From a virus: a stretch of 64,000 nucleotides of DNA. The notes beneath the pieces are model-generated. The model saw only the letters and a list, made by a program, of their open reading frames with translations. It searched no databases and had not been told where the DNA came from. Shown here in pieces: positions 4,783 through 52,592 of the stretch. The first letter of the stretch is position 1; each line of letters begins with the position of its first letter. The stretch covers positions 19,914-83,913 of the IMG/VR virus record IMGVR_UViG_3300029775_000166; one strand, 5' to 3'. Both the position numbers and the translations under genes were made by a program.

Positions 4783-5574
4783 CTATTCAAAATTATAATC
4801 ATATACAAGTTTGCAACCTGTTGTTACTTCTACATCAAATTTAACATATTTTTTGTTACCAATAATTTGACTAAGGGTTTTTGTATTTTCATTACCAAAA
4901 TACTTAACCAAATCATCATCGTTGATCATGTTATATATTGCATCGTCACTGTCTATATATTCAGCAATCATTACAAGAAGATACTCGCCATTACGTACTT
5001 TATTAAATCCATAAGTGGATATGTTATTATTACCTTCGTAATAAAAAGATGATTGTTTATAAAAAGTTTTTGGATCTTCATTTTCAATTAATATATTTTT
5101 TAATTCTTTTAATTCATATATAGGTTGTTCTTTATCTTTAGGGATTAATAATAAATCTACTGTACAAGGATTTACTTTATTTTCGTTATTAGTGTCAATA
5201 TATGTTACTCCACCTGTAATACTTCCTACTTGTTCAGGTATTACAGTTACGTTGCATTTATATTTCTTTTTTTGATAAGTTGCTGTAATTGTTGCTTCTC
5301 CTGCGGATTTGCCAGTAATTCTTCCATAGTTATTTACTGTTGCGACAGATTTATCACTAGATCTCCATTTCATATCAGATTTTATAGGCTTATCATCTTT
5401 TAATAATTGTACGTCATAACAAATTACTTTTTCTTCAATTGTTAATTCAGTGAGGCTTAATTTAATGTTACTCTTTTTTGATTTTGCATATGCTATGGAG
5501 CTACCGGTATATGCTGTAAAAACTATTGCTAATACGAGTACTAATGCAATTTTTAATTTATTTACTATTTTCAT
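4783..5574 (-). CDS. Secreted Ig-like (Big_2) domain protein; moron
   Basis: Signal peptide (..SIAYA); WRSSDKSVATVNNYGRITGKSAGEATITAT Big_2 motif; antisense to the tail operon. Confidence 0.8.
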   Translation of the reverse strand: MKIVNKLKIALVLVLAIVFTAYTGSSIAYAKSKKSNIKLSLTELTIEEKVICYDVQLLKDDKPIKSDMKWRSSDKSVATVNNYGRITGKSAGEATITATYQKKKYKCNVTVIPEQVGSITGGVTYIDTNNENKVNPCTVDLLLIPKDKEQPIYELKELKNILIENEDPKTFYKQSSFYYEGNNNISTYGFNKVRNGEYLLVMIAEYIDSDDAIYNMINDDDLVKYFGNENTKTLSQIIGNKKYVKFDVEVTTGCKLVYDYNFE

Positions 5575-37039: not shown

Positions 37040-37319
37040 TCCTAATAAATACTCTGCTAAAAGCAGGTGGTATGTACTTTGTCTTACTATTACCATAAGA
37101 TTTTTCCAACTTCAACTCGACAATGATAATATAGCTTACATGTATATATCACAGGGCTTTTCTTATTCCAACCCAACTTAAATATATACGATAGAGCAGT
37201 GGTCTGTTGCGTCAACCAAAGGTATCATAACTATACTATCGTAGCTATTGTTTCTAATAGCTTAGTCTGGTGAACTATTTAATGGAAGCCACGAAGTCTT
37301 TAGCTTCGTGGTAGTTCAC
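37040..37319 (-). ncRNA. IscB omegaRNA (HEARO-like)
   Basis: GTGAACTACC hairpin..GTTCACCAGACTAAG..CTACGAT..GACGCAACAGACC..CATTGTCGAG motifs upstream of iscB. Confidence 0.85.
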
Positions 37320-37384
37320 ATGGTTCACATATATCCTTCTTTCTGAATAATTATCCTCTTTATATATTATTATTACATTAGACA

Positions 37385-42017: not shown

Positions 42018-42410
42018 ACTTTTATCCTTTCTTCTTATGTTATTTAATATCTATATCATCCTACGATGTAGGATTATATTTTATTTATACATTAGGTCTA
42101 TCCTTATAAGGCTTACTATCATTGCAATCCTATATATTGCATTTATTCCGCAATTGCATTCCCATTTTCATCTAATCTCGTGTAGCCGCCACCAAATGTA
42201 CCGCCATTACTTTCGATAAACTCGATAAATTTAGTCCAAAATTCGTCAAATGACTTTTCAGGTGGTAATTCAATAACTCCGTTCACTTGATGCTCATTCC
42301 TCATTTAATTACCTACTTTTTAATTGTCAATTTACTCAAAATTTGCTTCTATAAATTTCTTTATATCTTCATAATCATATCCGCCATAATCATCAATGTC
42401 TGTTTCTAAT

Positions 42411-42571
42411 GTGAACTACCGCCAAGCTAAAGACTTGTCGGCTTCTTAGTCAATATCGCCATTGCGACAAGTTTACCTAAGCTATCCTCGTAGTTCCTAC
42501 GATTCTATTTCTCAAACCTTCATTTAGTATGTTTATTGCTGCATTTATATCTCTTTCATGATGAGTGCCAC
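42411..42571 (-). mobile_element. TnpB2-type 3' remnant with complete right end/omegaRNA
   Basis: 7 mismatches in 161 nt versus 9001-9161. Confidence 0.9.
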
Positions 42572-42857
42572 ATTTCTTACAAGTCCATACTGCGCCTTTT
42601 TGTTTACCGGCAACACTATAATCCTGACATGGACTCCCTCCAACAATCATATTAAATGGCTCTAATTTTGTTTCATCTACCTTTGTGATATCGCCTAAAT
42701 TTATGCTTTTATTAAAAAGCTGCAACCCTATGAAACAATGGTATTACAGAGGAGGAAAATACTTGAAATGCTATAAACTAGTTAATTTTTGTGAATTTGA
42801 CAAATACGCTATCGATAGTTACTGTGCTATACATAATGTGAATAAAAGCATAAATTT
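42477..42857 (-). pseudogene. Cytosine-5 methyltransferase remnant, partly inverted and fused to TnpB tail
   Basis: GDITKVD..GGSPCQD on minus; YKLVNFCEFDKYA..IHN on plus inside the inverted segment; motif I absent. Confidence 0.8.
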
Positions 42858-44482: not shown

Positions 44483-44519
44483 TTAATCACTCCTTTCACA
44501 ATTGTATCAAGCTATAATT

Positions 44520-44744
44520 TTATTGTCCATTAACAGCGTTATATTGATATTCCAGTTCTTCTTCATCTAAATATTTATGTCTTACCATGTATCGTTGTAT
44601 ATCATTTTCATCATAGTTAATAATTTTATTTCTCATTCGTACATACACATCATAATTATTTCCTTTGTTATTAATTAAACATTTAACTACAACACCAATT
44701 AAATAATCTTCGATTACTACTATATCTCCAAAACAAAACTTCAT
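44520..44744 (-). CDS. Small SH3-like hypothetical protein
   Basis: FGDIVVI..GVVVK..YDVYVR. Confidence 0.5.
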   Translation of the reverse strand: MKFCFGDIVVIEDYLIGVVVKCLINNKGNNYDVYVRMRNKIINYDENDIQRYMVRHKYLDEEELEYQYNAVNGQ

Positions 44745-45095: not shown

Positions 45096-46376
45096 TTAAA
45101 ACAATTTACAGCCTTGTTCCTTAAATTCTGCCACTTTATTATTCCAGTCTTCTTTAGTCCATTCAAATTCTTTCATTAGGCACTTTTTACACTGGAACTT
45201 TTCAATCTGTCTACCATAAAGTTTCATATTCATAGCCAACGTATTCTTATCCTTGATTTTCATAGGATTTTTACGTTTATTTAAACAGCCATTATTACAA
45301 TATCTATTGAAGTATTTTTTAGCAACTCCTAAATCCAAATCATTATGTAGTGCATACTCCTGAATAACTTTTTCAACGGGTTCACTTCTAAATACTCCAC
45401 CATTCCAAGCTTGTTGGACATATTCTTCTATTGTGCAATTCATGATTAGCCACTTATTATTATTAATAAAATCTTCTTCAAGAATGTTTCTCCATCTGTT
45501 AAATAATTTCGGATACCAATATTGATCTAATACCCAAGTTGTTTTAGTATAATTTGGGCAAACTATGCCACACCCTACTCTGTCATAACCCTTTTTATAC
45601 TTTAGATTTATGTCAATTCCCTCTCGTAAAATATATAGCCATATATCTAAATCTGTCCATTTACGAATAGGAAGTATTCCTACCCAATCTCGTTTATTCC
45701 CCCACTTATTATTAATCCAAACATCTTCGTACCCTGACCTATTATTACTTTCATCGTTTCTCATTCCAAATAAGAATAGCAATTTATCACCTACATCAAA
45801 TTCATTCATTGTTGCTCCTTCTTTGAAATACGTGCAGCAAACTCTGTTTAATCTTGATGGTATAATATTCTCTCGTTTCTGCCATTGATAAAATCCACCA
45901 TATTTCTTTTCTGGGTATGTAAATTTATACCCTTTAGCTTTTGCAAACCTATTTGAATCAGCAACATCCATAGTGGTACAGTTGAAATATGTATCAAATT
46001 TTAATCCTGCTTTATGTGCTAAATGAGTTTTAACTTCACTATCTTTACCTGTAGAATTAGTATCAATAATTGTTCTATCTGTATTTAGTCCGTATTCCTG
46101 TAATAGTTTAATACTGTTGTTTTCTAGTTCATTTAACCTATCGTTAAGTAACAACTGTGTATCATACCATGTTGCGATTTCAAACTTTTCTTTTTTATAA
46201 GTTGTATAAGACATACTTAAATCATTTTCTGTTTTTAATCTATACACTTTATGTATTTTCCCTTGTTTATCGAATGCTTTTACAATCTGTCTATCCAACC
46301 AATAATAACCTTCTTCTAATTGTAAGCCACATTTGTCGTAAATAAATTTACAGTGTTCATTCCATATTGGTAGCAT
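45096..46376 (-). CDS. Second PAPS reductase family protein with C-terminal Cys cluster
   Basis: STGKDS, RVCCTYFKE, GMRNDES..R, PI.KW, RVGC..CP. Confidence 0.8.
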   Translation of the reverse strand: MLPIWNEHCKFIYDKCGLQLEEGYYWLDRQIVKAFDKQGKIHKVYRLKTENDLSMSYTTYKKEKFEIATWYDTQLLLNDRLNELENNSIKLLQEYGLNTDRTIIDTNSTGKDSEVKTHLAHKAGLKFDTYFNCTTMDVADSNRFAKAKGYKFTYPEKKYGGFYQWQKRENIIPSRLNRVCCTYFKEGATMNEFDVGDKLLFLFGMRNDESNNRSGYEDVWINNKWGNKRDWVGILPIRKWTDLDIWLYILREGIDINLKYKKGYDRVGCGIVCPNYTKTTWVLDQYWYPKLFNRWRNILEEDFINNNKWLIMNCTIEEYVQQAWNGGVFRSEPVEKVIQEYALHNDLDLGVAKKYFNRYCNNGCLNKRKNPMKIKDKNTLAMNMKLYGRQIEKFQCKKCLMKEFEWTKEDWNNKVAEFKEQGCKLF

Positions 46377-46420
46377 TATATCTCCTTTCTAATTCTAAAA
46401 TATCACATGAAATATTTGAT

Positions 46421-46579
46421 TTATTGAAATGATGTTTCAGTCCAATCATCAGCATTAAGTATAAATTTTTGATTATGATAATCGTATTCCACCTGTTCTA
46501 AAGCATCTTCATAACTTATCGCTTTAACTTCAATTACTCTTTCTAATACTTCTTTTACAGTGATTTTATATGTATTCAT
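46421..46579 (-). CDS. DpnD/PcfM-family small protein (52 aa, not in ORF track)
   Basis: Y.I..KE.LERVIEV.A.S.EDA..V..Y..F.L.ADD. Confidence 0.65.
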   Translation of the reverse strand: MNTYKITVKEVLERVIEVKAISYEDALEQVEYDYHNQKFILNADDWTETSFQ

Positions 46580-47232
46580 TAAATTACCTTTAGCTGAGTA
46601 AACTCAGGTTTATATCCTTTCTGCCATACCATATGACAATATTCAATACTATCTGTAGAACCTTTCTTTGGATTACCTTCTTTATCAAGTATTAATTTAC
46701 CTGTTTCTTTATCTTTTTTATCTGTAAAACCTATTCTGATATGATGCACAAAACAATATTTTGGTAGTTGTTTTTGGAAGAATGAAAATCTATCTTTACT
46801 ACCAAAGAAGTTTAACCGTAACAACATAATTACATAACCATTATCTGCTACATCAACTAATGCTTTATTGATAATTTCTACCGCTTGATTAAATGGTGGA
46901 TTAGTGATAATAATATTTGGCTGATAATCTAATTTTATTTGAAGATAATCTCCTTTTGTAAATGCAAAACTATCTTCTCTAATATCAATTGTGTCAATGT
47001 GCTTGTTATATATATTATGTATTGCTACAGGATAACTCATTGGATGATATGCTTCATATTCTGGAATTTCTTCATTACCTCCTGCACAAGGATCAAGTAT
47101 TTTACTATTTAACCAATCTAGTTGTTCAACTTTTTCAAATTCGTTTAGAAATAACTCTATATCTTCAATTGGTGTAACATAATAATCTGCTATATGTGTA
47201 TCTCTTGCATCACTTCTATTTGTACTACTCAA
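46579..47232 (-). CDS. Small N6-adenine methyltransferase-like protein
   Basis: ILDPCAGG; IITNPPF. Confidence 0.75.
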   Translation of the reverse strand: MSSTNRSDARDTHIADYYVTPIEDIELFLNEFEKVEQLDWLNSKILDPCAGGNEEIPEYEAYHPMSYPVAIHNIYNKHIDTIDIREDSFAFTKGDYLQIKLDYQPNIIITNPPFNQAVEIINKALVDVADNGYVIMLLRLNFFGSKDRFSFFQKQLPKYCFVHHIRIGFTDKKDKETGKLILDKEGNPKKGSTDSIEYCHMVWQKGYKPEFTQLKVI

Positions 47233-47301
47233 TTAATCATTCCTTTCTTCATTTCATAGTTTAATATATGTATTTATCCAATCAAATCATCCTTTTATTG
47301 C

Positions 47302-48288
47302 CTATCTATTTATGTAATCATTTAATAGATTTCTCTCTATTTCTCTAATAACAGGAACTACAACACTATCTCCTGCCATTACATACAATGAGCTAACACT
47401 AAATCCATTTTGCTGTAATAAATCACAATCCTCTTCTTTAAATCCCATTAGCTTGAAACAACCTCTAGGTTTTATCCCACCAATATGTTCTTTATATGCT
47501 AAGATTGTAAAATTTCCACCACCCTTACCCATATAAGCTGTTATTGTAGGATGCTCTCTATTAGACTGAAATCTTAGTCCGCTTTGTCTTAGAGTAATAA
47601 CTGTATTATCAAAACGTACTTCTCCTTCAAGTTTTATATTATCATCATTATTTAACCCTTTTGCATAACCAACCATTCTACTCTGTCTGCTAGTTAATTC
47701 TCTAGTATCATATGGATCAATTTTATCCCACCAATTTGAAGTGTCGTTTCCACATGGAAAATTATATGTATTATCATCAATATCTTTTCTAATTGAAACT
47801 ATGTAAACTCTATTTCTACTCTGCGGCCAGAAGTCTTTAGCATTAATTACTTGCCAATAATTATCATATCCAGCATCATCTAAACACCTTAGCATTTCAT
47901 TAAATTCATCAGTAAATCTGTTTGGTAAGTTATCTACATTTTCCATGATTGCATATTTAGGATTAGCTGCTTTAATAACATCTAGTGCATTCCAAAATAA
48001 TGTACTTCTAATATCATTTAAGCCTAGTTCTTTACCTGCCTTTGACCAACCCTGACAAGGTGGAGAATATACAACTAAATCACATTGTTTTATTTCTTGT
48101 TTATTAATTGAGGTTATATCTTTCCACCTTTTTTCTATTGATTCGTTATGTAATAGAGAATATGCTTTTGCTTTACCATCATCAATTTCACAGTAATTAA
48201 GTAATTCGTAGTCAATACCTAATTCTTGTAGCCCTCGTTCTTGTGCTCCTATTCCTGAAAATAGGCTTATCACTTTTAATTTATCCAT
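47302..48288 (-). CDS. dcm: C5-cytosine DNA methyltransferase
   Basis: SLFSGIG, SPPCQ, MENV, Q.RNR, GDSV. Confidence 0.88.
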   Translation of the reverse strand: MDKLKVISLFSGIGAQERGLQELGIDYELLNYCEIDDGKAKAYSLLHNESIEKRWKDITSINKQEIKQCDLVVYSPPCQGWSKAGKELGLNDIRSTLFWNALDVIKAANPKYAIMENVDNLPNRFTDEFNEMLRCLDDAGYDNYWQVINAKDFWPQSRNRVYIVSIRKDIDDNTYNFPCGNDTSNWWDKIDPYDTRELTSRQSRMVGYAKGLNNDDNIKLEGEVRFDNTVITLRQSGLRFQSNREHPTITAYMGKGGGNFTILAYKEHIGGIKPRGCFKLMGFKEEDCDLLQQNGFSVSSLYVMAGDSVVVPVIREIERNLLNDYINR

Positions 48289-48363
48289 TTATTATCCTTT
48301 ATAGTTTCATATTTTTATTAATCACATCAAACTGCAAATTGATTCGATTTTTCAATCGATTTA

Positions 48364-49623
48364 TTAGATTAAGTTAACCCTAATTGGATGACAACCTACA
48401 CCCTCTATCCCATCTTCAAATGAATTTGGGAATGCTTTGACCATAATTTGATATGATCCATTTACATCTGCATTAATTTCAGTTCCGCTATTACTTATGA
48501 AGAGACCACGATATTTCCTCCTTTCCTTGTCATAATTTTCTTTTACAGGTGTTTCTCTATCTAAAAAGCTTGTTCCACTTGTATAAGACTCATTTGTTGT
48601 CTTAAAAATAATTCCTACGTTTTCACATTTATATGTAAGTTTGTCAACCAAGGTTTTATATGGTATTTGTATAAACTTCTGATTGCTAACCTTACCCATG
48701 TTTGATTCTTGTTTCCAACCCTGATTATATCCACAAACTAGTGTATCAATATTATTATCTAAACAATAATCAACTATCATCTTGGTAGCCTTATGTATAT
48801 AATCACAAACCTTATTATTTCTCTTAGTTGTTAACCTTTGAAGTTTATTACTCCAGTCTTTATCATTTTTAGTCTTTAACATTGATTTTTGTTTAGCTAG
48901 TTCTTTATTGTAATATTGATTAATTGATTTTAAAGGTCTTCCGTTAATAATAAGTGGTTGTAATCCACAATTGTTTGTAATTGTTAATAAATTATCTACA
49001 CCTAAATCTATTGATGCTATTCTTTCTGTGTCGCTACATATGTCTGGAACTTCTATTTCATAAATAATTTCCATTATGTAATCATCGCCTTTTGGCACAA
49101 ACCTACATTGTATTAACTTAGAGTCACTTGAAATTTTTGTATAATATGTATTGTTTAATATTTTTAATGGTGTCCATGAAAAATAAATACAAGCATCAAC
49201 TATTCTAAATTTTATATTGTCAATATCCAATTCATATCTTCCATCTTTAGGTAAGTATGTAGGTATTCTTGGCATCCCCTTATATTTGTTGGGATTTTTA
49301 TTCCAATCTTTAATAGATTTAAAATATGATACCCAATTTTGATTTAATTTTCTTAATGTTGCTTGACCTACATTACTCCCCATATCTTTATATGGCTCAC
49401 TGCCTTTCACTAGTTTAAATAATTCATTGTATTGTATCCAGTTTGCATTTTCTCGTAATCCTTGTTGTTTTTCTTTTGATGTAATTATAAATTCTTGTCT
49501 AATTATATAATTGCCATAGTTATATACATTCTTTGATTTAAAACATAAACTATCTATCAATTTCCAATTTTTATTATTTTTCCTTATTCTGTGCTGTTCT
49601 ACTCTATTTACTTTCATTAACAT
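48364..49623 (-). CDS. tnpB: Solo TnpB (copy 3), atypical RuvC-II, no zinc finger
   Basis: SIDLGVDN; VCGYNQGWKQE; ESYTS; INADVNG; no tnpA or TTCAC end nearby. Confidence 0.85.
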   Translation of the reverse strand: MLMKVNRVEQHRIRKNNKNWKLIDSLCFKSKNVYNYGNYIIRQEFIITSKEKQQGLRENANWIQYNELFKLVKGSEPYKDMGSNVGQATLRKLNQNWVSYFKSIKDWNKNPNKYKGMPRIPTYLPKDGRYELDIDNIKFRIVDACIYFSWTPLKILNNTYYTKISSDSKLIQCRFVPKGDDYIMEIIYEIEVPDICSDTERIASIDLGVDNLLTITNNCGLQPLIINGRPLKSINQYYNKELAKQKSMLKTKNDKDWSNKLQRLTTKRNNKVCDYIHKATKMIVDYCLDNNIDTLVCGYNQGWKQESNMGKVSNQKFIQIPYKTLVDKLTYKCENVGIIFKTTNESYTSGTSFLDRETPVKENYDKERRKYRGLFISNSGTEINADVNGSYQIMVKAFPNSFEDGIEGVGCHPIRVNLI

Positions 49624-49817
49624 TCCTTAAATTTATATAATTTAACACTATTCCAAAACCTCAAATATGTATTATGGTATTTGCAGATATAATCTACTAG
49701 GCGAAACCCACGCCTTCTATCTTGTTTTATCAAGAATACTTGCGAGTGTAATTTAAATTACACTCTATAGTTTTATATTGTTAATATCGCATGAAATCGT
49801 TCTTTTATCTTGATTAT

Positions 49818-50561
49818 TTATAGTTTTATATTGTATGTAAATAATTTCTCAACACTACTTACTCTCTTAGTGTTATCAATTGTCCTTAGAACCTCTTGTT
49901 GCCACATACAAGTCATATCATCGGGTGCTTGGCATTCACTTACAATCACAATATTGTCTTTGCTCACATCTCTAACCCATTGCCAAAACTCTTCATAGTC
50001 AAATGACTTATTAATTCCATACTGCTTTGTGTCTTTGTATGGAGGATCACAGTATATCAATGCATCCTGTAACGATAAATCTTTATAATCTTCACAAGAA
50101 AATGTGATATCTTTCAAACTATCTATCTGGCTTTCTAAATTTCTTTTTGCTTCATCATAATAATTCCTCACCGTACCAGCTTTTGTATTTACTAATCCTG
50201 CGTATCCACCATCAAAAAATCTACCATTGTAACTAGCGAGAAAGCCTATTGCCCCAACATACCATTTATCATATGTGTCTAGTTTCTTGTTGAAACAATC
50301 TCTGACTTCTGAATAGTGTTCCTTTGTAATAAATTCAGGTAATGTATGTATTTTGTTTAGGTTTTTATACATCTCAATAAGATATTCATGCTTATCTGTT
50401 GCTAGTTTGTTTTCACATTCTATCTTATCTATTACATTACATCCACCACAGAACGGTTCTACATATAGTTTAATATTATTCATATCTATGCAATCCTGAA
50501 TTATCGGAACTATGTGTTTGGCTATCCGACTTTTACTTCCCATATATTTAATAATGTTCAC
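49818..50561 (-). CDS. Dam-family (D12 class) adenine methyltransferase
   Basis: YMGSKSR, VEPFCGG, IYCDPPY. Confidence 0.88.
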   Translation of the reverse strand: MNIIKYMGSKSRIAKHIVPIIQDCIDMNNIKLYVEPFCGGCNVIDKIECENKLATDKHEYLIEMYKNLNKIHTLPEFITKEHYSEVRDCFNKKLDTYDKWYVGAIGFLASYNGRFFDGGYAGLVNTKAGTVRNYYDEAKRNLESQIDSLKDITFSCEDYKDLSLQDALIYCDPPYKDTKQYGINKSFDYEEFWQWVRDVSKDNIVIVSECQAPDDMTCMWQQEVLRTIDNTKRVSSVEKLFTYNIKL

Positions 50562-50797
50562 TCTCCTTATATTTCAATACATTTCCGCACATCACGTTCT
50601 TCTTCTTGATTTAACGCAGTGTTATCTTTAATACATATCATTTCAAATTTACTACATTTATTTGCATCAATAACGAAACCAAATATGTTCATACAGTTAG
50701 ATAGTTCTTTACAATTTCTACAATCTTTTATTAATTCCATAAATACTCCATCCTTATATAGTTTTATATTCCTAATATTCACATCAAACCGTTGTTT

Positions 50798-50980
50798 CTA
50801 TACTCTTCTATTCCAAGATTCAATCGCCTCTTCTTTTGTTAAGAAATATCCACTCGCTCCAAAACAATCATGACATTCTATAAAATGACCATATATTTTT
50901 ATTTTAACTCTTTCATCGTCATAATCAGCACCTATGTTTTCACTCCCACAAAATGGACATGGTTTTAATTCATCATTCAT
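50798..50980 (-). CDS. Lar-like restriction alleviation protein
   Basis: LKPCPFCG..C.DC..AI..WNRR. Confidence 0.8.
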   Translation of the reverse strand: MNDELKPCPFCGSENIGADYDDERVKIKIYGHFIECHDCFGASGYFLTKEEAIESWNRRV

Positions 50981-51024
50981 AATTAATCCTTTCTTATCGT
51001 ATAAAAGCGTTATTCTCTGTGCTT

Positions 51025-51300
51025 TTACACCTCAAACTTTGGTTCTTTACTATACTTGTTAATCAAATCATTTGCTAACTTCTTAATTATTTCACTTGTT
51101 TCAGGTGATTCTGTTAAATTTTTCAACAATGCTAAAGTGTATTCTTTATCAATGTAATTTACTAGTGTTTCAATAACAGCTATATATCCTAGAAAATACA
51201 TATCATACATACCTTGCTGCTTCATTATGTTTTCAACAATCTCATCTTTTGCAATTTGAATTTCTGATTTCTTTCGTATGTAATAATCTCTAAATTCCAT
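51025..51300 (-). CDS. Hypothetical protein
   Basis: RBS, co-oriented. Confidence 0.45.
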   Translation of the reverse strand: MEFRDYYIRKKSEIQIAKDEIVENIMKQQGMYDMYFLGYIAVIETLVNYIDKEYTLALLKNLTESPETSEIIKKLANDLINKYSKEPKFEV

Positions 51301-51344
51301 TTTGATTTTCCTTTCTAATTATCCAATCAAAGTAAAGTTCTATC

Positions 51345-51596
51345 TTATTTTTTTATATTCAATTCAATGTCAACAGCCTGACCGCATTGCCAACAATACC
51401 TATCGTCTGTTTCAATTTTAGAAAAGCAACTTGGACATATGTTAAAATCCTTTTCATCAAATTCAAATGGTTTTGCTACCAAACGTTGTAATGCTCTATA
51501 TGTAACAAGTGCCACTTTGCACTCCCTTTTGTTGTTTCTATCTGCATTTTTTAATCTTTTTTCTGCATCCAATAATGCTTCTTCTATTAAGTACAT
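51345..51596 (-). CDS. Small zinc-ribbon protein
   Basis: CPSC..YCWQCGQ. Confidence 0.6.
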   Translation of the reverse strand: MYLIEEALLDAEKRLKNADRNNKRECKVALVTYRALQRLVAKPFEFDEKDFNICPSCFSKIETDDRYCWQCGQAVDIELNIKK

Positions 51597-52592
51597 GAGA
51601 TTCTCCTTTCTAACATTCTAATGAAATGATATTTCTATGCTATTTCTTTACTATGTAATAATTTTCCACTTCCGCCAGTAACAGCTCCATATTTTTCATT
51701 CATGTAGTCACCAATGTAATTTTCGATATCAATTAAAATCTCATTAGCATCATCAATAAATATTTCTTCTGGTAAAAATATTCTACTTACTACATATAAT
51801 CCGATTGCTTTATCATCCATAATTATTACTCCTCATCATCACTTTCTTCCGTAATATCAATTATTTTTACACCATTAGCAAAATCTACCACATTGGTAAA
51901 CAATTCTTCTAAATTACCCTCTAAATCATCTTGATAATCTGGATTTATTTCAGTAAGTTCAATTATGTATTTCTTATTCATCGTTTAATATCTCCTCTCT
52001 TTACTTAGTAAATATGCATTCGTATTCTCTCTTCCAGTCACCACCATCATTAATCTTCTGCATTACTCTTAATCCCATATCTTCTTTAATATCTTTAATC
52101 CACAATCTAATATTGTAATGTATCTCAGAGTATCTATCATCTTCTTTGTAATTATGTAATACTGCTTCATGATATAAAGCTTCATATTTACAAGCTAATT
52201 TCTCTAGTCGTTTTACGAATGTATAATCATTTCTTATGAACTTTCTCATAATATCACCTCTTTTCAAATAAGGTACATATTTTATTTGTATTACTTGAAT
52301 TATTGCATTTTTCTTCTTTAATACAATAGTGGCACAAATTTTCATTTTTCTTAAAACAAGCAACCATTCCTATAGTATTTCTTTTTGGACAATTGTCGTA
52401 ATTCCAACATTCTTTACTACATATCTTATTTATTTGTTCTTCATTAGCTTTATATTTAATTTTAATATCACTTGAATCACCTTCACTAAATATTTCACCA
52501 GTTTTCATATCTACTATTTCAAAATGGATTACTTCTTTTTTATTAAATTCGAATATATCACTCACCCCCTAAAACCACTTAAAATTGATAAC

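Follow-up and report, generated by a model that had tools for sequence, protein, structure and literature searches.

A phage-borne TnpB with two candidate guide RNAs, a probable intermediate between transposon and CRISPR system

What does a solitary tnpB gene do in a phage, lying between two methyltransferase genes and away from any transposase, and where is its guide RNA encoded? The gene lies in the window, the 64,000-nucleotide stretch of DNA analysed here, which is part of a 109-kb phage record (G000, 72% complete) from fermentation and sludge metagenomes. The preliminary description took the product for a domesticated RNA-guided effector, exchanged as an accessory cassette, whose RNA would be either the 5′ leader or the 3′ end of the open reading frame (ORF). 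Our analysis points, with a probability of about 0.75, to a phage-borne, TranC-like intermediate between transposon and CRISPR system that would use two guide RNAs. The features of the locus, in 5′ to 3′ order of the minus strand, are as follows.

49818–50546, minus strand: Dam-like methyltransferase cassette (PF02086), a neighbour, given for context only
49791–49808, minus strand: upstream 18-bp site, left cassette border (comparison with L004 and L006)
49744–49765, minus strand: hairpin at the 5′ end of the leader; its sequence and length vary between homologues
49668–49746, minus strand: tracrRNA-like scaffold, a duplicated omegaRNA (16-sequence alignment, covariation, model, L177)
49720–49735, 49699–49715 and 49683–49697, minus strand: scaffold stems, the second with the pseudoknot loop (49704–49710)
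49668–49681, minus strand: anti-repeat, end of the scaffold
49660–49666, minus strand: type II-A leader anchor ATTTGAG (motif)
49635–49659, minus strand: shortened 25-nt CRISPR repeat, remnant of a repeat-spacer-repeat array (66 nt deleted relative to sisters)
48364–49623, minus strand: tnpB, 417–419 aa, no zinc finger, rearranged RuvC (ORF, profile, alignment of homologues)
48337–48442, minus strand: native omegaRNA scaffold in the 3′ end of the ORF (leader model, fold, covariation)
48408–48432, 48386–48403 and 48344–48360, minus strand: native omegaRNA stems, the second with loop GGTTG (48392–48396)
48337–48341, minus strand: native pseudoknot partner CAATT, inside the downstream 18-bp site
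48326–48343, minus strand: downstream 18-bp site, right cassette border, with T for the usual A at position 6
48317–48336, minus strand: predicted native guide from site position 8 onward, an estimated 16–20 nt (pseudoknot register; filled and empty alleles)
47302–48288, minus strand: C5 methyltransferase cassette (TIGR00675), a neighbour, given for context only

The tnpB frame (49623–48364) encodes 419 residues, or 417 from the ATG at 49617, the start used by homologues, and there is one copy per genome. As described before, the product is a TnpB (175 bits against the NCBIfam guided_TnpB profile, cut-off 100) that has no zinc finger, there being no CxxC pair; no tnpA adjoins the gene in the window, and TTCAC is absent from the minus strand between 48200 and 49900. 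The RuvC pattern that had been read as D...G(WKQE)...D is present, but the acidic set is a different one. E306, the Glu of WKQE, varies among 34 homologues, in all of which D206, G298, E345 and D386 are invariant (catalytic codons 49006–49008 for D206, 48589–48591 for E345 and 48466–48468 for D386). G298 occupies the canonical RuvC-II Glu position and E345 lies 47 residues further on; the NADxN motif is present as an invariant NADVN that contains D386. A rearranged RuvC-II is known from the RIIr-5 group of IS607-family TnpBs (PMC10691335), and in TvTnpB and Fanzors such a site is active thanks to an alternative Glu some 45 residues further on (PMC10530073). With D206, the alternative E345 and D386 in place, the RuvC domain looks active. 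The predicted fold matched ISDra2 TnpB best (8h1j, E 1.2e-15), with low model confidence around residues 301–318 and 346–351. A search of the PDB by sequence at 1e-5 gave no match, and the curated Cas12f model NF049972 was not reached (32 bits against a cut-off of 450).

Relatives at 44–47% identity adjoin a resolvase-type (serine-recombinase) tnpA, confirmed by PF00239; the lineage is therefore IS607-like, and a TTCAC end is not expected. The lack of a TTCAC end and of a zinc finger is normal for a family of IS607 lineage and is no sign of domestication. That the gene is not an ordinary non-autonomous insertion sequence is supported, tnpA being absent from 18 of 18 members of its clade (motif scan).

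The borders of the cassette are set by an 18-bp quasi-palindrome, ATnAAA-N6-TTTnAT, which separates most genes in the tnpB region. With 11 exact matches against 2.2 expected, the sites are commoner than chance, yet they are not specific to tnpB: between 30 and 59 kb of the window lie 25 intergenic copies, each with no more than one mismatch. The preliminary description had placed one of them exactly 20 nt beyond the tnpB stop and another upstream, and both are confirmed (48326–48343 and 49791–49808). At the upstream site L004 and L006 keep the core and right half, and the left half and upstream gene differ. In L006 (1600–1668) the tnpB half-site (48326–48343) is fused in exact register to the window site at 44506–44523, with about 3.8 kb skipped and only 2 bases common at the joint. 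This joint is a direct sign of site-specific cassette exchange with a crossover after site position 6, and the proposal that tnpB is exchanged as a cassette is borne out by neighbours that are swapped exactly at the 18-bp sites in L004 and L006. The C5 methyltransferase gene is replaced in L006 and other homologues, and a 112-aa gene stands instead of the Dam-like gene in L004 and L005. A functional tie between tnpB and the methyltransferases was considered and rejected, and the significance first attached to this setting has to be given up: since flanks differ in most homologues, these neighbours are incidental. Short recombination sites that shuffle phage accessory genes have reportedly been described; our literature search found no paper on them, and the 18-bp sites are therefore given no established name here. 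The sole tyrosine-recombinase match in the record lies outside the window (G000:C1:12752–13285); it may be an integrase or a candidate enzyme for the 18-bp sites. At window positions 45096–46376, where a 426-aa PAPS-reductase-like gene lies, a 99%-identical sister has an HNH gene (L004:4519–5244).

We analysed the leader by alignment and covariation. The three hairpins noticed earlier are present at 49744–49765, 49720–49735 and 49699–49715, while a fourth (49683–49697), the anti-repeat, the anchor and the half repeat had been overlooked. The leader folds with z = −3.6. A covariance model built from 16 leaders only matched two places in the whole genome, namely the leader and the tnpB 3′ end (48303–48442), the latter weakly (39 bits, E about 1e-4 to 3e-4); the same model also matches the tnpB 3′ ends of array-less relatives. 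In a natural recombinant, L177:3140–3277, the last tnpB codons follow immediately on the leader scaffold, the array and most of tnpB having been lost. When the window leader was aligned pairwise with the end of its own ORF, the score did not reach significance (94 of 1,000 shuffles scored as high), so the homology of leader and 3′ end rests on the covariance model and L177. The leader scaffold is a second copy of the omegaRNA that lies at the 3′ end of tnpB, and because of this duplication the choice between leader and ORF end, as it had first been posed, is answered with both rather than either.

The structure of the scaffold is supported by covariation in its three stems. Over all 20 structure pairs 99.7% of cells are paired, as against 33–54% in slid controls, and two-sided changes occur in 13 of the 20 pairs, including two of the five pseudoknot pairs, where the compensatory changes come from one lineage each (L024 and L067). 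In all 16 loci the second-stem loop pairs with the five bases at the 3′ end of the repeat, and the first base of the spacer lengthens this pseudoknot to 6 bp. Because the pseudoknot takes in the first spacer base, that base is biased towards pyrimidines (37 of 38; 47% expected, p ~1e-11), and the pairing ties the repeat 3′ end to the scaffold, a requirement of a TnpB-type guide. An anti-repeat/repeat duplex is a plausible fold, with matched combinations not clearly better than mismatched ones (ranks 1–12 of 13). A search of 46000–52000 against Rfam, with E up to 5, gave no relevant match, RAGATH-18 included, and a promoter scan stayed at chance level (12 versus 12.7). Some related loci (L016, L020, L022, L037, L017, L045 and L069) have a longer 5′ leader extension, 250–400 nt upstream of tnpB, with nested hairpins and a conserved AAGTTTGGCGACC motif, which is absent from the window. 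Extra scaffold-like copies without an array were seen downstream of tnpB in L024 (5539–5668) and in L047 (3582–3722, minus), where the copy precedes an array-less tnpB and lies on the other strand; they are possible orphan guide RNAs.

Sister contigs that are 99% identical (L004–L007) contain 66 more leader bases, which complete a 36-nt repeat, add a 30-nt spacer and begin a second repeat; the window copy has therefore lost a spacer. The same cassette exists in public runs in three states, spacerless in X1, with the L004 spacer in X2 (same study as X1) and with a different spacer in X5 (another study). In X1, which is possibly the source of the window DNA and hence not independent, the spacerless form lies in one 19-kb contig. 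Assembly collapse was considered as the cause of the missing spacer and judged unlikely, given this contig and an exact common repeat of 26 nt, which is shorter than the 31-letter words with which Logan assembles. Since the deletion took the repeat 3′ end, the CRISPR pseudoknot cannot form in the window copy, and with the spacer also missing only the native guide is expected to work here; the ORF and the native omegaRNA are intact.

The complete arrays have type II-A features, with a repeat of 36 nt, spacers of 29–32 nt and an ATTTGAG leader end, which is essential for II-A adaptation with group 1 leaders (PMC5382924). ATTTGAG or ATTTGAT is present in all 21 array loci compared and degenerate in L008, where the first repeat is degenerate as well (4895–4937). 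The clade repeats are identical at 29–30 of 36 positions to the repeat of a Lachnospiraceae array beside cas1 and csn2 (L217) and similar to that of another beside cas9, cas1 and csn2 (L218); the terminal repeat keeps its 5′ 21–25 nt, the portion needed in a Cas9 crRNA. The II-A adaptation and effector genes (cas9, cas1, cas2 and csn2) are absent at the locus, cas1 is absent from the phage record at its 72% completeness, and cas9 from five records, four of them at least 90% complete. Judged by sequence, the leader anchor and repeats were taken from a host type II-A CRISPR. Near-identical cassettes differ in their spacers. In L024 one spacer is duplicated, the arrays of L025 and L067 have one 57–58-nt spacer each, and L177 (7050–7650) has two more mini-arrays with II-A-like repeats and TTTGAG leader ends, in a locus with no tnpB and a different upstream sequence.

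Mini-array and scaffold occur together in all 18 sampled members of the TnpB clade, the window remnant counted. They mark a single clade (SH-aLRT 95), the 18 rows requiring one change on the tree against 16.8 when shuffled, as judged from a quick tree with a midpoint root. All fetched homologues of at least 61% identity, and two faster-evolving groups as well, have scaffold, anchor and array, with 1–4 spacers and a shortened last repeat just 5′ of the ribosome-binding site. Homologues thus retain the leader, and their flanking genes are mostly different; the flanks vary as in a mobile element, by swapping of neighbours, yet no standard insertion sequence emerges, the borders being the 18-bp sites. 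Array-less relatives (L033, L060, L085 and L220) have a small ribbon-helix-helix-like gene upstream of tnpB, at the place of the scaffold, which in L033 gives a weak match to Pfam RHH_5.

Five perfect protospacers were found; all of them match spacers of relatives and lie within coding sequence of other phages or mobile elements. One falls within a lexA-like gene that a Lachnospiraceae genome carries in a mobile region, one in a gene common to twelve small phage-like contigs, one in a gene of two other viral contigs, and two in a single integrase gene. The last is a tyrosine-integrase gene (L244:1212–1790, minus) matched by spacers of L029 and L030, 71 nt apart. The 5′ flanks, given with the first spacer base, read GCA/T, AGA/T, AAA/C, GAA/C and AAA/C, with A at −1 in all five and a pyrimidine as first base, whereas the 3′ flanks start with TTCC, TGGA, TGTA, AGGG and AAGC and have nothing in common. 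In this small sample of five protospacers from four target groups, none of them from the window's own subclade, the flanks point to a 5′ motif close to (A)AY rather than to a Cas9 PAM. Neither viral nor metagenome contigs gave an exact match to the spacer of L004, and the merged X5/L008 pattern gave chance matches only, with at least 7 mismatches. There was likewise no credible target in annotated phages for the arrays of L022, L025, L030 and L045, none in 400 Lachnospiraceae genomes for those of L025 and L018, none in viral contigs for L022_s2, L031_s2 and L023_s1, and no self-targeting spacer in the phage record. The twelve contigs targeted by one spacer (L230–L241, 7–28 kb) resemble small or satellite-like phages. 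Portal, terminase and major capsid genes occur in L230 together with a phrog_8308 gene, and a longer member of the phrog_8308 family in another target (L242) matches Pfam RdRP. In L238 and L240 copies of the same protospacer have altered 5′ flanks, with G at −1 in one and C at −2 in the other, and may be escape variants.

The omegaRNA in the 3′ end of the ORF folds with z = −2.7, and the loop that corresponds to that of the leader pairs with bases 3–7 of the downstream 18-bp site. Its variable base can pair with site base 3 in all 27 related rows (C–G 14, T–A 6, G–C 2, G–U 5), pairing being kept even though the changes alter a codon (Ser, Leu, Cys). This suggests that the native omegaRNA is still under selection. 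As it ends in the downstream half-site, its guide would extend into the adjoining cassette and fit alleles without tnpB. Immediately ahead of the predicted guide, seven empty alleles (identical downstream cassette, tnpB missing) have AAAY and filled alleles AATY; the exceptions are two alleles without upstream tnpB that also read AATY (L087 and L039). No empty allele matching the window's own native guide was found. The native guide would then match tnpB-less alleles behind the motif favoured by the CRISPR targets, with its own copy protected.

Taken together, these results suggest the following history and mode of action. A TnpB of IS607 lineage would have lost its transposase and become a cassette between phage 18-bp sites; its 3′ omegaRNA was, as the sequence shows, copied to the upstream side of the gene and linked there to the leader anchor and repeats acquired from a host type II-A CRISPR, to which the host Cas1–Cas2–Csn2 most likely adds spacers, in parallel with what has been proposed for Cas12r and type I-E. 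TnpB would bind scaffold and repeat, closed by the pseudoknot between loop and repeat end, use the spacer 3′ of the repeat, as in type V systems, and cut the DNA of rival phages and satellite-like elements behind a motif close to (A)AY. The native guide, less certainly, would direct homing into tnpB-less alleles. TranC reportedly retains its native right-end RNA (dual guidance); here that RNA is kept in sequence, with covariation. In the window copy the array has collapsed by the 66-nt deletion. Type II-A acquisition normally selects a 3′ Cas9 PAM, which raises the question of how such machinery could yield 5′-motif spacers; we assume selection after insertion. More tentatively, and at somewhat less than even odds, all of this may form one scheme, in which a II-A-filled array is read in type V polarity against rivals, the native omegaRNA cuts alleles without the cassette wherever it lands, both rely on one (A)AY motif that came from the cassette half-site, and a non-A at −2 protects both loci.

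The CRISPR arm and the homing arm of this reading can be questioned separately. If the former holds, the ORF-embedded omegaRNA could still be a relic without homing, the cassettes moving by site-specific exchange only. The missing empty allele for the window's guide and the weak 3′ model match would fit. Against it, the pseudoknot base changes with its partner at the expense of a codon, and site position 6 switches between A and T in empty and filled alleles; we regard this as unlikely but deserving serious consideration. Another proposal is that the mini-array feeds the host Cas9, as a phage mini-array or decoy, with tnpB a mere neighbour. The II-A-type repeat, the anchor, the 29–32-nt spacers and the 5′ half retained by the terminal repeat are what it would predict; however, the scaffold descends from the omegaRNA of this TnpB rather than from a Cas9 tracrRNA, its loop shows covariation with the 3′ end of the repeat, a 3′ PAM is lacking at three protospacers that belong to a single subclade, and the distribution of the arrays is that of the TnpB clade, which makes this proposal improbable.

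The same can be said, with slightly more assurance, of CRISPR-guided binding without cutting by a TldR- or Cas12m-like repressor. It would account for the Gly at the canonical RuvC-II Glu, the low model confidence at 301–318 and 346–351, and the L004 and L013 spacers, for which no target was found but which resemble ribosome-binding regions in reverse complement. Against it, the alternative E345 is invariant together with both Asp residues, as in active enzymes, and the five known targets all lie inside genes, on either strand. Finally, the locus might be an ordinary non-autonomous IS607/IS1341 element that is mobilised in trans and whose leader is structured by chance; this would agree with the resolvase-type tnpA beside the 44–47% relatives and with the varying flanks. 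It is largely refuted and we consider it very improbable, as tnpA is missing throughout the clade, each genome has one copy, the borders coincide with phage sites, and the conserved leader covaries and has spacers that match real targets.

The preferred reading, a TnpB on its way to a CRISPR effector, would represent an independent TnpB-to-Cas12 transition whose steps are visible in living relatives: the IS607 element, the transposase-less phage cassette, the duplicated omegaRNA, the captured II-A array, and collapsed or deleted forms such as the window and L177. A type II repeat appears to have been rewired for a type V-like effector, and if the 2–3-nt motif is true, the system would combine a predicted nuclease of 417 aa and a natural single guide with a very short motif.

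The nearest known counterparts are the TranC systems, transposon–CRISPR intermediates as summarised in PMC13565253 and bioRxiv 10.64898/2026.03.27.714800, which give the CauTranC9 clade a mean of 414 aa, a phage-borne tested member and 38-nt repeats (clade 9). As far as these summaries go, the likenesses are a TnpB-sized effector without domain accretion, a short array without cas1 or cas2, a tracr-like RNA derived from omegaRNA, and spacers against phages. The differences, within the same summaries, are the rearranged RuvC without a zinc finger, the 36-nt II-A repeats and II-A anchor, the scaffold fused in cis to the first repeat, and the native guide that crosses a phage cassette site; LaTranC (PDB 9jfq) is 12% identical in structural alignment. 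Cas12r-CRISPR of Thermus Lalka phages, for which the host system has been proposed as spacer supplier (bioRxiv 10.64898/2026.04.20.719267), is likewise a phage-encoded, TnpB-derived effector with host-like repeats and no adaptation genes, with an A-rich 5′ motif and rival integrative elements as targets. However, Cas12r has 564 aa, needs no tracrRNA and shows type I-E features, whereas the present system has 417 aa, an omegaRNA-derived scaffold and type II-A features. The literature searched does not describe this combination, the clades of Jin 2025 being represented there by summaries, so that the present clade may be among them; nor do the papers searched report a II-A source of repeat and anchor, a covarying pseudoknot, or a coupling of native guide and 18-bp site.

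With the RIIr-5 group (PMC10691335) and TnpB2, for example TvTnpB (PMC10530073), the protein has in common the Gly for Glu, the alternative Glu about 45 residues on, NADxN and an omegaRNA that overlaps the 3′ end of the gene; unlike IS607-family TnpBs, it has no serine-recombinase tnpA, is bordered by 18-bp sites and has the extra CRISPR arm. The array agrees with Lachnospiraceae II-A (group 1 leader, PMC5382924) in its 36-nt repeat, identical at 29–30 positions, its spacers of about 30 nt and ATTTGAG. It departs from II-A in the absence of cas9, cas1, cas2 and csn2 at the locus and in a repeat 3′ end changed to AAACC, which pairs with the scaffold loop, and from Cas9 systems in the predicted use of the spacer 3′ of the repeat, the opposite polarity. 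TldR repressors have an inactivated RuvC and guides against promoters, whereas here the catalytic triad is invariant and 5 of 5 targets lie inside genes. IS200/IS605 elements of the ISDra2 type have a Y1 tnpA, a TTCAC-type right end, a C4 zinc finger and DRDxN, all of which are lacking here. By the features tested, the locus is not an IS605 or IS607 element, Cas12f, TldR or II-A. Elsewhere in the window, a chimeric ORF (42477–42725) joins a piece of a C5 methyltransferase to the zinc-finger tail of an IS605-type TnpB, and an inverted pair (37285–37321 and 42409–42445) has IS605-type right ends with TTCAC; the chimeric ORF and these right ends are unrelated to the tnpB element studied here.
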